From contig JBDOQK010000036.1 of NCBI GenBank assembly GCA_040437565.1, forward strand, positions 186,001-250,000: a stretch of DNA of 64,000 nt, read 5' to 3'. Source of the DNA: Albugo candida (Eukaryota). The translations under genes and the position numbers were made by a program. Below the pieces are notes generated by a model. It did not search any database, had not been told where the DNA came from, and saw only the letters and a program-made list of their open reading frames with translations. Shown here piece by piece: positions 61,140 through 63,368 of the stretch; positions within the stretch are counted from its first letter, which is position 1, and the number at the start of each line of letters is the position of its first letter.

Positions 61140-63368
61140 CTAGACAGCTCCTTGTCGGAACATGGCCTGAGCCACACTCAAAAATCCAGCAACATTTACG
61201 CCCACATGCAAATTTCCAGGAGCATTAAACTCCTTTGCAGTTGCGGCCACCCGATTGTATAATTTTCTCATGTAACCTGACCAGATAATGAGCTACCGCG
61301 ATAGAAAGCATAGAGTTGCATACCATCAATCAAGTCATCGACTTGCTTTGGTGAGAGCTCGTGAGGTAGGCTGGTGCTCGTATGCGGTAACGCAAACTAG
61401 ATACATTTTCTGAGTCTATATCTTGTCATCAGCAATATGCACGAACCGATGCTCCATTTGACGCTTTGTTGGGCCCATACGCTAAATTGTGCTGCTGAAG
61501 GATCTCGATCGCCTGTAACCATCCATAAGCGCTCATCATGCTCTGATTGAAAAGTGAGTCTTCCTTACCTTGCGGGAGCATGGAAAGTAAGCACCTTCAA
61601 AAACTCCCATACAGCCATTTTTGATGAGTATTTTCATATCGGATTCATGAATATCCGACTGTGTGGCGCATGGGAAGGCATAATCACACGGAGTGGCCCA
61701 TATACTTCCATCTTCTGCAGGATGGTACAGAGCGCTGGTAGAGGTCATGATATATCCTCCGATACGCGCATTCCGCTCTGTTTTGAGTTGCTTTAATTGA
61801 GCGATATTCTGCTTTGTAAATCCCTCAGGCTCAATGACATAGCCGAAATTGTCGCTCATGCCGATGGGAATAGCGCCCAAATCTAGCAGTTTTTCCGCAA
61901 CATTCAAAGCCACTACGCCTGAACCTGATATAAGACATCGCTTTCCACGTAGAGATCCACCGCGAGCTTCGAGGATGTGTTTGGCAAAATGGACCACTCC
62001 ATAGCCAGTGGCCTCAGGATGGTAATATAATCCTCCACTCAGAATCCCTTCCGTTCCCTTGTAACAGAAACAGTCGAATCTCATTTATATAATTGTTCAA
62101 ACCGGTAAAGCGATACATACGCCGGGATGCAATTGTCGTAAGCGTTTATACTGTCCAAACATGTACCCGATTTCCTTGGGGCCGACACCGACTCCTGCTG
62201 TAGGGATATCGGTATGTGGTCCAATGTAGTTTGCCAATTCGGTCATAAAACTTTGACAGAATCGCATCACTTCTGACTCGCTTTTATCGACCGGATTGAA
62301 ATCAGATCCACCATTTGCTGCTCCATAAGGACCTGCAAGAGCATTACGAAACACACTTTCGAATCCAAGGGNNNNNNNNNNNNNNNNNNNNNNNNNNNNN
62401 NNNNNNNNNNNNNNNNNNNNNNNNNNNNNNNNNNNNNNNNNNNNNNNNNNNNNNNNNNNNNNNNNNNNNNNGTACCCGATTTCCTTGGGGCCGACACCGA
62501 CTCCTGCTGTAGGGATATCGGTATGTGGTCCAATGTAATTTGCCAATTCGGTCATAAAACTTTGACAGAATCGCATCACTTCTGACTCGCTTTTATCGAC
62601 CGGATTGAAATCAGATCCACCATTTGCTGCTCCATAAGGACCTGCAAGAGCATTACGAAACACACTTTCGAATCCAAGGGCCTTCACGGTCCCATGATTC
62701 AAATCAGGATGGAAGCGAAGACCGCCCATATATGGACCACAGGAGCTTGAAAATTGGACACGGAAGCCGCGATTTACTCTGCTGTTACCAGAATCATCGA
62801 CCCAAGGAATCCGAAACTATACAGCAATATTAGATTTTGAAGTTTAGTGGAGCAGTAATGTACCTGAATCACACGCTCCGGCTCGATGAGAGTTTTCATG
62901 ACCCACGCGTACTTTGGATACCGATCGAAGACTGGAACGACTGAATCGATGAAAACATTGACCGCTTCCAAGTATCTAGACAGATTTTGAGCACACGTGA
63001 CAATAGGAGCGCTCTCCAAAGTACTCGGTCTATATAGAGCGATTGGTGAGGCATTCCGCTTCGCTTTATGCGTTTTCTACCTGGTAGGGGTCCCTTCGTG
63101 TGCTTTCTTCCATACTACAGAGTGAATTACGTCGTTAGCGTCTAACATTTGTCTCGAGGAAGTTATGAGCTTACAGCATGTCGGCAGCCTCTTGACCATT
63201 GCGAAATCGTTTATCGCCTTCACGACGAAATAATGGCTTACTCTTCCAGTGTTTCTTTCCATGGGTTGTGCCATGAACGTCTGACATCAAAGAAGTCTTA
63301 TTTCGGATCGCCTGTTTTGATGCAATTAGTCTTGCAATCTGAGGCTGCGATCGCCATGATGTCCACAT
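61140..63368 (-). CDS. NADP-specific glutamate dehydrogenase homolog (multi-exon) with substituted active site and mitochondrial-type presequence
   Basis: [62 protein letters not shown] and C-terminal [20 protein letters not shown]. The N-terminus is rich in Arg, Ser and Lys. Confidence 0.92.

Follow-up and report, generated by a model that had tools for sequence, protein, structure and literature searches.

A probable non-catalytic, arm-bearing descendant of NADP-type glutamate dehydrogenase in Albugo candida and other stramenopiles

The only glutamate dehydrogenase (GDH)-like locus in the window, the 64-kb stretch of Albugo candida DNA that was analysed, encodes a protein that most likely is a maintained, nuclear-encoded, non-catalytic and probably mitochondrial descendant of the hexameric NADP-type GDHs, keeping the oligomer interface and acting via an N-terminal arm. 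The coordinates of the gene are given in Table 1.

Table 1. Features of the GDH-like gene in the window, listed from the 5' to the 3' end of the gene
Feature	Position	Strand	Details
Whole coding gene, ATG to stop	61140..63368	minus	9 exons, 8 introns, CDS 1497 nt; start codon ATG 63366-63368, stop TAG 61140-61142
Exon 1	63175..63368	minus	presequence and main portion of N-terminal arm; spliced contig
Exon 1, presequence, aa 1-26	63291-63368	minus	
Exon 1, arm, aa 27-64	63177-63290	minus	H32 63273-63275, W41 63246-63248; arm conservation
Exon 2	63081..63114	minus	34 nt; spliced contig
Exon 3, micro-exon ACCGA	63025..63029	minus	5 nt, between AG and GT
Exon 4	62864..62975	minus	family-signature A101 (62906-62908) and K105 (62894-62896)
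Exon 5, 5' part	62473..62816	minus	PF02812 domain; carries five altered catalytic sites
M145 (K89 site)	62727-62729	minus	
S166 (Q110 site)	62664-62666	minus	
R169 (K113 site)	62655-62657	minus	
N180 (K125 site)	62622-62624	minus	
G220 (D165 site)	62502-62504	minus	
Assembly artefact within exon 5	62164..62472		duplicate left copy, 100-N run (62372-62471) and one base; duplicate 62164-62371 = 62473-62680
Exon 5, 3' part	62121..62163	minus	43 nt; joins 62473 directly after artefact removal
Exon 6	61569..62057	minus	PF00208 domain; H257, GSGVVA, Y401
H257 (R205 site)	62019-62021	minus	
V292 in GSGVVA (N240 site)	61914-61916	minus	
Y401 (N347 site)	61587-61589	minus	
Exon 7	61447..61512	minus	spliced contig
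Exon 8	61324..61396	minus	spliced contig
Exon 9, with TAG stop	61140..61276	minus	spliced contig

The original prediction, made from the sequence alone, had described an intact, spliceable frame. That the gene is intact, spliced and expressed was borne out by a 1724-nt contig from the public run X1, in which all eight introns (47-63 nt each, all GT..AG on the minus strand) were skipped and which continued beyond position 61000 as 3' UTR. Two of the eight splice joints were seen again in run X6 from another study, and the genomic, unspliced form was present in a 40.8-kb contig of run X10; the transcript evidence is the spliced contig itself, the assignment of the runs to RNA or DNA being a guess. 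Exon 3 was recognised from five letters standing between both sides of one joint in the X1 contig, and it restores ...DPYQTEYLEAV..., in agreement with the orthologs. This conserved micro-exon appears to derail the public gene models of several orthologs.

In the assembly, the frame of the gene is interrupted by the run of 100 N, flanked by the two copies of a 208-bp duplicate that carry 1 mismatch and must be collapsed. The 309 nt of the artefact were absent from both the unspliced X10 contig and the spliced X1 contig, and the N-run arose in scaffolding as an artefact. Gap and duplicate collapsed in frame, giving a product of 498 amino acids and a stop. A frameshift hidden by the N-run was considered and rejected, because the 40.8-kb contig, obtained independently, bridges the gap and stays in frame.

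Purifying selection acts on the gene. Twelve distinct coding differences were found across four related runs, ten of them synonymous (pN/pS 0.058; binomial P for two or fewer nonsynonymous differences among 12 = 1.5e-5), and the X10 contig differed from the window at 7 of 1497 coding nt versus 17 of 695 non-coding nt (P 9e-5). Orthologs from Pythium and Phytophthora to Saprolegnia and Achlya were 56-76% identical across the query exon. In a metagenome scan for orthologous DNA, identity was 40-47% at each of the 80 loci retained, and these represented canonical GDHs detected via a shared peptide pattern.

The exon translations matched Pfam families PF02812 (6.3e-39, 133 bits, cut-off 25.3) and PF00208 (7.1e-40, 137.7 bits, cut-off 23.4), which places the protein in the ELFV (Glu/Leu/Phe/Val) dehydrogenase superfamily. 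The seven altered motifs listed in the original prediction were all recovered in the product, namely GPYMGG (residue 142), FESVFRN (164), GAANGG (177), PTAGVGVG (217), HPEATG (257), GSGVVA (289) and EGAYFP (398). Its residue numbering (K89, K113, K125 and D165) agreed with the alignment to Clostridium symbiosum GDH (1bgv_A), in which query 1-114 corresponded to chain 60-174 and which located K89, Q110, K113, K125 and D165. Aligned with the GDH of Corynebacterium glutamicum (5gud_A, E 2e-45), the protein showed the changes K to M, Q to S, K to R, K to N and D to G, the K to N change at the K125 site adjoining a one-residue deletion. The window protein thus has N180 and G220 in place of the catalytic Lys125 and Asp165 (C. 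symbiosum numbering), and M145, S166 and R169 in place of Lys89, Gln110 and Lys113, which bind the substrate carboxylate. The dinucleotide fingerprint GxGxxA is kept as GSGVVA, with V at the N240 site and Y at the N347 site. The motif loss is far beyond chance: among 100 GDH matches outside the clade, from the same search, 94 read exactly KQKKDRNN over the eight surveyed positions. Residues 1-26 contain five K/R and no D/E and resemble a mitochondrial presequence, so that the basic presequence that had been predicted was confirmed; the N-terminal composition indicates that the protein is probably mitochondrial.

All 21 rows of the oomycete clade, with named members from Pythium to Saprolegnia, lacked K89, Q110, K113, K125 and D165, so that the loss of the catalytic set is common to the whole clade. 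The K113 site was R and the D165 site G in 21/21 rows, while the K89 site was M, V, I or L in every row and the K125 site was H, A or N. N240 was lost in 21/21 rows (T/V/I/K), but N347 was kept in 13 of the 21 (N/H/Y/S), so the EGAYFP change is specific to this organism. The oomycetes retained the GSGxVA fingerprint, the SD pair that follows strand 2 and 111 of 177 canonical-invariant columns. When scored against NCBIfam NF006929, the NADP-specific GDH equivalog with a cut-off of 536 bits, the ortholog P0002, which is ~77% identical to the window protein and was scored in its place, reached 475.8 bits, the diatom member P0284 336.9 bits and the group-E member P0130 354.3 bits; the active relative P0273 scored 691.1 bits, above the cut-off. 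Taken together, the intact and spliced gene, the clade-wide loss, the purifying selection and the presequence uphold the description of the protein as a maintained pseudoenzyme.

The restriction of that description to oomycetes was too narrow. An oomycete-wide clade does exist, and the alignments place it in a larger stramenopile family that includes diatoms, a raphidophyte and further lineages; outside the oomycetes its named representatives are Heterosigma akashiwo and Fistulifera solaris, and MMETSP/EukProt diatom-like records belong to it as well. The nearest Atlas neighbour was the same diatom-rich GDH-like cluster both times, a lead and not a placement. The family hallmark is an N-terminal arm, VHG..W[RK]xKPLF[RK]R.G..F.TG.EA, which follows a variable presequence and had not been singled out in the original prediction. 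The window protein carries the arm at residues 31-61 and is thus a member. Across 39 family rows the arm columns were conserved at 82-97%. Of 150 cluster representatives 21 carried the full arm, as did 13 of 107 further matches, and none of these arm-bearing proteins (0/21 and 0/13) had all five catalytic residues together. Two records in which a kinase is fused to GDH (P0006 and P0007) are probably merged gene models.

In a 73-row tree built with the arm columns removed, canonical proteins (34 rows) and arm-bearing proteins (39 rows) were split with 99% SH-aLRT support, and the same split had 98% support in a 65-row tree; both trees were quick searches and are unrooted. The window protein fell within the oomycete clade with a support of 100% (65 rows) and 99% (73 rows). 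Owing to long-branch attraction, the fast-evolving dead lineages could look more unified than they are. The replacements at K89, K113 and K125 differed among the subfamilies (M/R/H, E/S/V and A/Q/R), and on this comparison the decay of the catalytic set took its own course in each branch of the family.

The arm alone, as the exon-1 translation, matched no Pfam family and had no significant match in the PDB (best E 0.15). That best match, the C2H2 zinc-finger array of PRDM9, was rejected because the arm has no cysteines. A search of the PDB with the family profile returned canonical GDHs only, and the arm was matched in none of them. A metal site of the X-X-His type at the amino terminus, which VHG would form once the protein is processed, was also considered and was dropped as pure speculation.

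The fold was examined on the ortholog P0002 in place of the window protein. Its AlphaFold model (pLDDT 87-89; 87.3 and 88.6) had as its best Foldseek match by TM-score the GDH 5gud_A (TM 0.82/0.92, rmsd 2.4), and its distal arm (VHG..W) was modelled at a pLDDT below 60. ESMFold2 predicted a P0002 homodimer with a score of 0.44, versus 0.01 for the best of three controls, at a mark that was reached by 21 of 30 solved one-chain pairs, by 0 of 23 solved single chains and by only 1 of 7 eukaryotic proteins without an older solved relative. The runs shared at least 46% of contacts, with a partner pLDDT of at least 84. The predicted interface comprised residues 109, 112-113, 116-126, 134-138 and 502-504 and included the family-signature K112 of P0002, which corresponds to K105 in the window protein. 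The homodimer result may stem from solved GDH hexamers that the model has memorised.

Among 10 oomycete rows, mean column identity was 0.89 in the arm and 0.79 in the body. The 63 canonical-invariant columns that had changed showed a mean identity of 0.60, and only 9 of the 63 were fixed, including K to R at 169, D to G at 220 and A to T at 218; the other body columns had a mean identity of 0.75. With the arm most conserved and the former active-site columns least conserved, this pattern speaks for a non-catalytic protein rather than a new enzyme.

Compared with the small-class (~50 kDa, S_50I) hexameric NADP-type GDHs of E. coli (GdhA; 4fcc, 3sbo), C. glutamicum (5gud, 5ijz) and C. symbiosum (1bgv), the protein has both Pfam domains, the GxGxxA fingerprint and a sequence identity of ~40-48%, and the P0002 model has the same fold and the same strand pairing in the predicted two-fold interface. 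Unlike these enzymes, it has K89, Q110, K113, K125, D165, R205 and N240 replaced, one residue deleted before the K125 site, an added presequence and a conserved arm of ~48 residues, and its ortholog P0002 falls below the NF006929 cut-off. The closest active relatives among those compared were P0273 and P0088, both transcript-length contigs. P0002 and P0273 were 48% identical (226/467), in an alignment that covers [13 protein letters not shown]. P0273 and P0088 share with the family an N-terminus that resembles a presequence and the signature residues YAW..K and R; unlike it, they have 6/6 catalytic motifs and just the proximal half-arm, the distal VHG..W half being absent, and they fell on the canonical side of the split in both trees.

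On the preferred reading, the protein would be imported, its presequence of ~26 residues would be removed, and it would assemble into GDH-like oligomers through the predicted two-fold strand-pairing interface of GDHs, serving as a scaffold or regulatory subunit. The functional surface would then be the conserved basic arm together with the nearby domain-I residues A101, K105 and R128, and not the old cleft. The arm might bind an active GDH from its own lineage, some other mitochondrial protein or nucleic acid. As for the history of the family, it is quite possible, though we hold this tentatively, that the stramenopiles, namely oomycetes, diatoms, raphidophytes and at least two more lineages, share an old mitochondrial family derived from GDH, in which the distal VHG..W arm was gained and the catalytic residues were then lost repeatedly in a branch-specific manner.

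A more specific role, which we regard as unlikely but deserving of attention, would be that the dead subunit joins an active GDH of the same lineage in mixed hexamers and tunes its activity. Paralogs of homo-oligomers often retain cross-assembly. The active P0273 and P0088 share the presequence, the proximal half-arm and the signature residues with the family, and these signature residues lie along the predicted two-fold interface or next to it. There is also a precedent, since the GDH of Thermus thermophilus is outlined in PMC9570180, after Tomita et al., as a heterohexamer that combines four subunits of GdhA with two of GdhB, of which one type is inactive and regulatory, and PDB 3aoe was among the structure matches. 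The likeness to Thermus GdhA, a non-catalytic subunit of GDH fold kept for another role, is at the level of role: GdhA is bacterial, belongs to the other small-GDH class, is of independent origin, has no N-terminal arm and has a known partner subunit, and 3aoe_A was 24% identical (TM 0.65/0.76, rank 46). Against mixed hexamers, no active small GDH of a named oomycete was among the matches listed (best 120 of 477, 7073 and 8000), and the search started from the active P0273 gave no named oomycete GDH in the best 120 of 8000 matches. Furthermore, the canonical Heterosigma copies P0297, P0299 and P0302 (449 aa) lack a presequence and are thus predicted not to share a compartment with the dead copy, and the absence of the VHG..W half from the active relatives points beyond plain co-assembly.

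The features kept in the oomycetes count against a fully non-catalytic reading. The retained GSGxVA and SD would allow NAD(P)H binding, sensing or an unusual redox role, and with R fixed at the K113 site, the alpha-carboxylate position, and a hydrophobic residue fixed at the K89 site (21/21 each), a ligand could still be bound. In its old cleft the oomycete branch might accordingly bind NAD(P)H, a hydrophobic amino or keto acid, or both, without turnover, and report the metabolic state to a partner, a sensor role in line with the 111 canonical-invariant columns kept. We consider it improbable, as clade members differ at sites that touch the nicotinamide or substrate in active GDHs (N240, N347 and K125), conservation is lowest in the changed columns, and the residue pattern is not common to the diatom, D or E subfamilies. 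Catalysis of a different reaction by new catalytic residues is less probable still, to a degree that we regard as very slight. The conserved scaffold, part of the Rossmann fingerprint and the nine changed columns fixed in oomycetes would fit such an enzyme, but no possible conserved base is found at the K125 site (H/A/N) or the D165 site (G), only those nine columns are fixed, and unrelated residues occupy the catalytic sites in different subfamilies. No characterised active ELFV dehydrogenase is known to lack K113, K125 or D165. The missing catalytic residues, together with the N-run and duplicate inside the gene, might also suggest a decaying pseudogene or an assembly artefact. This is refuted as far as sequence data can refute it, and we give it practically no weight: the frame is open through nine exons, a spliced contig exists, an independent contig closes the gap in frame, and both the low pN/pS and the orthologs across the oomycetes speak against decay.

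In titles and abstract openings, no description of the family or of a dead GDH in oomycetes or diatoms was found; PMC6264045 and PMC6647872, in the parts consulted, merely list GDH genes. Members of the clade and family from Phytophthora rubi, P. fragariae, Achlya hypogyna and Fistulifera solaris carry the public name 'NADP-specific glutamate dehydrogenase'. Because none of the arm-bearing proteins has the full set of five catalytic residues, database names that call it an NADP-dependent enzyme are probably wrong, and so, probably, are the nitrogen-metabolism reconstructions of oomycete pathogens and diatoms that count its members as an ammonium-assimilating enzyme.

For the evolution of pseudoenzymes, the family offers a newly conserved arm on one scaffold whose active site decayed along different paths in sister lineages, with active relatives that carry half of the arm available for comparison. 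The role of a conserved, probably mitochondrial, dead GDH hexamer is a testable question, for which transformable relatives can be used. If the proposed history is true, 'NADP-specific GDH' genes across these stramenopile groups would not be enzymes, the arm would have brought a new, non-enzymatic role in mitochondria and so rendered catalysis dispensable, and the hexamer might, as a structural or regulatory module, attach to some other mitochondrial machine or to nucleic acid.

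The GDH-like gene lies on the minus strand, and its coding ends, ATG at 63366-63368 and TAG at 61140-61142, are exactly those of the original prediction (61140..63368). In the raw translation of the window, GDH-like pieces were spread over three frames; the structure was resolved by placing contigs of four public sequencing runs (X1, X5, X6 and X10) on 61000-63500. A 1724-nt contig of X1 skipped eight stretches of 47-63 nt relative to the window, all of which had a GT start and an AG end on the minus strand once the boundaries were moved by the 1-2 ambiguous bases reported in the contig comparison. 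Two of these joints were seen again in contigs of X6, from a different study. The X1 contig also carried five additional letters between 62975 and 63081, which were assigned to a 5-nt micro-exon because they matched 63025-63029 and because AG and GT flank this segment. The adjoining introns were 51 and 49 nt, and the product including the micro-exon agreed with the ortholog sequence there. Odd insertions occurred at precisely this position in the public models of P0012 (Phytophthora cactorum) and of P0018 and P0019 (Aphanomyces astaci) when compared in alignment A1, so the micro-exon is probably conserved across orthologs and routinely mis-predicted.

The N-run inside the gene is a scaffolding artefact, since an unspliced 40.8-kb contig of X10 and the spliced contig of X1 both skipped exactly 309 nt there. 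The single mismatch of the flanking duplicate is G/A (62229 / 62538), and the A form was carried by one run, X5. The scaffold is heavily gapped, with 16 N-runs of 100 N in the window (60212-60311 is another); similar overlaps may be hidden at these, and gene models spanning them therefore need collapsing. After the gap and duplicate were collapsed, the CDS was 1497 nt and encoded 498 aa, with eight GT..AG introns removed in the X1 contig, which bears out the full-length spliceable frame claimed earlier. No second GDH-like locus was found in the 64-kb window by tblastn. Upstream of the gene, about 136 nt separate the end of a minus-strand open frame (63517-63921; 134 codons, stop to stop) from that of the GDH-like transcript contig. 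The frame is hydrophobic at its N-terminus and contains a long stretch rich in Ser/Thr/Asn; a small protein that is secreted or membrane-bound is one possibility.

Features of the GDH-like gene and its product, and residues of arm-bearing groups at canonical GDH sites (Clostridium symbiosum numbering)
Feature	Position or site	Context	Detail
N-run, 100 N	62372-62471	inside gene	208-bp duplicate on both sides, one mismatch
Micro-exon, 5 nt	63025-63029	minus strand	X1 contig letters; AG and GT on either side
M145	K89 site	window protein	
S166	Q110 site	window protein	
R169	K113 site	window protein	
N180	K125 site	window protein	one-residue deletion adjoins
G220	D165 site	window protein	
Oomycetes	K89/Q110/K113/K125/D165 sites		M/V/I - T/N - R - H/A - G
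Diatom-like	K89/Q110/K113/K125/D165 sites		E - S/A/N - S - V - G
Group D	K89/Q110/K113/K125/D165 sites		A - Q - Q - R - G
Group E	K89/Q110/K113/K125/D165 sites		mixed; K113, K125 or D165 still present in some, e.g. P0178 = QQKKD

All seven altered motifs listed in the original prediction were present in the spliced product, and both ELFV Pfam domains matched strongly. Residue sites were set with HMMER against the C. glutamicum GDH 5gud_A (E 2e-45), and the stretch matched in the C. symbiosum GDH 1bgv_A (60-174) served as the second reference. A search with a 182-aa exon, taking longer proteins only, gave 477 matches among 1049 candidates. The best 20 of these were 56-76% identical over the exon and included Pythium, Phytophthora, Peronospora, Peronosclerospora, Aphanomyces, Saprolegnia and Achlya as named organisms; the matches after them were ordinary GDHs with identity of at most 53%. 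Eight positions were scored in 21 oomycete rows, namely the window protein and the best 20 matches, some partial. The expected sharing of the changes across the clade held for K89, Q110, K113, K125, D165, R205 and N240, lost in 21/21 rows (K113 to R and D165 to G in every row), but not for N347, where N was kept in 13/21 rows and Y was confined to the window protein. Among 100 other listed matches, KQKKDRNN was exact in 94, two were partial, and four (P0067, P0074, P0113 and P0115) had substitutions at the eight positions. P0113 and P0115 (449-450 aa; K125 to Q, D165 to G, N347 to D) have no presequence and fall among canonical rows, some of them bacterial. P0067 (457 aa; M-N-S-A-G, same one-residue deletion) groups with the oomycete/diatom branch, and its model begins downstream of the arm described below.

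The oomycete ortholog P0002 was searched exhaustively with phmmer against 1.84 billion cluster representatives, giving 6899 matches. An N-terminal arm, VHG..W[RK]xKPLF[RK]R.G..F.TG.EA (distal half VHG..W, proximal half the rest), was carried by 21 of the best 150 of these, and none of the 21 had all five catalytic residues intact. A profile search found 13 further arm-bearing proteins among 107 new rows, with all five residues kept in 0/13. Of the best 150 representative clusters, 50 had one or more of the five replaced. Among the arm-bearing proteins from the profile search, those with names were P0274 (Heterosigma akashiwo), P0284 (Fistulifera solaris), P0283, an MMETSP record with an organism name starting 'Chaeto', and P0294, a EukProt record with the tag CCRYP, which we take to be Cyclotella cryptica. 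Before the arm, the N-termini were variable and R/S/A/T-rich with few acidic residues, suggestive of a mitochondrial presequence. Additional conserved motifs were seen upstream of the arm in two further arm-bearing subfamilies, groups D and E (e.g., P0129 and P0130): group D has 'GRSWQPGSSLARELSRKPAVKSLVG', and group E has 'RPLxxTQSINSG'. In the public models P0006 (Phytophthora rubi) and P0007 (P. fragariae), of 1663-1701 aa, a PF00069 protein-kinase domain is fused to the dead GDH; these are probably merged neighbouring genes and not real fusions.

Two quick IQ-TREE trees were built from selected rows, with partials, both kinase fusions and the majority of bacterial GDHs excluded. All canonical rows stood together on one side of a branch in tree 1 (26/65 rows, 98% SH-aLRT) and in tree 2, with the arm columns removed (34/73 rows, 99% SH-aLRT). 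The window protein fell inside the oomycete clade in both unrooted trees (100% and 99%). A single origin of the arm-bearing dead family is likely, short of proof because group E has long branches, as flagged by the IQ-TREE run. P0273 and P0088 carried 6/6 catalytic motifs. Both also had an N-terminus resembling a presequence, the proximal arm (..LFRRGG..F.NG.EA..L), and the YAW..K and R residues of the signature. Counted from the arm, P0273 shared 48% identity with P0002; it scored 691 bits, above the NCBIfam NADP-GDH equivalog cut-off of 536 bits, while P0002, P0284 and P0130 scored 476, 337 and 354 bits, below it. Since both relatives combine intact motifs with the proximal arm, this half is older than the catalytic loss; it is the distal VHG..W part alone that is specific to the dead family.

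Run labels are guesses only, and the transcript evidence is the intron-less X1 contig itself. Taken together, the four runs departed from the window sequence by 12 distinct coding changes, 10 of them synonymous; the others were N23H, in the presequence, and R457G, whose codon is shared by 61266 and 61268, each scored singly. Over 338 synonymous and 1156 non-synonymous sites, pN/pS was 0.058, and the probability of so small a number of replacements was 1.5e-5. X10 differed from the window at 7/1497 coding and 17/695 non-coding positions (P 9e-5). The gene is maintained, and a pseudogene is extremely improbable.

Comparison of 39 family rows with 34 canonical rows identified family-only conserved columns in the arm (V31, H32, W41, P45, L46, F47, R49, G51, F55, G58, E60, A61, E68 and R71) and in the body (A101, K105, R128, S138, G174, G220 and C374). 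Canonical GDHs have 177 columns with conservation of 90% or more; of these, oomycetes kept 111, diatom/raphidophyte-like proteins 80, group D 100 and group E 49. When 10 full-length oomycete rows were compared, without the truncated P0018, column identity averaged 0.89 in the arm and 0.79 in the body, 0.98 in canonical columns kept and 0.75 in the remaining body columns. The 63 changed canonical columns had a mean of 0.60, with 9/63 fixed. Given identities of 0.60 and 0.89, the old active site is the least constrained part and the arm the most. This pattern would be predicted for a non-catalytic protein but not for an enzyme that runs a new reaction in the former pocket; a new enzyme is in our view unlikely.

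AlphaFold models of P0002 were confident (pLDDT 87.3 and 88.6), and Foldseek matched them to GDHs (5gud_A, TM 0.82/0.92), with Thermus 3aoe_A at rank 46 and 24% identity. An alignment limited to the family raised the proximal arm (residues 51-60) to pLDDT 79, with two beta-bridges, and left the distal arm below 60. No PDB chain matching the arm was found. ESMFold2, run without our own alignment, gave a two-copy score of 0.44 vs 0.01 for the best control, a mark reached by 21/30 proteins solved as one-chain pairs and 0/23 solved as single chains. Contact agreement between runs was at least 46% and partner pLDDT at least 84, and the predicted interface combined the two-fold strand pairing of GDH with the C-terminus, signature K112 included. 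Because GDH hexamers are already solved, this pass may reflect the predictor's memory of them; what it shows is likeness and not binding.

We consider it probable that the gene encodes a maintained pseudo-GDH, likely located in mitochondria, which would still assemble GDH-like oligomers and act via the arm plus the adjoining domain-I surface. The Thermus-like regulator of an active GDH proposed in the original prediction is plausible, though tentatively so, since the interface signature is also present in the active relatives that bear the arm; its oomycete partner would be hypothetical, and the distal arm is left unexplained. A ligand-sensing role is more doubtful still, with the retained GSGxVA/SD elements and fixed R169 in its favour. 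The pseudo-GDH acting through its arm remains our preferred reading.

According to PMC9570180, a single bacterium is known to have dead GDH subunits, namely Thermus GdhA. Unlike the arm-bearing family, Thermus GdhA belongs to a different GDH class and is without the arm. No dead GDH in oomycetes or diatoms was found in the literature searched, which included few subscription journals. The arm-bearing dead-GDH family is broad and probably misnamed as an enzyme in public records, and it poses a clear experimental question.
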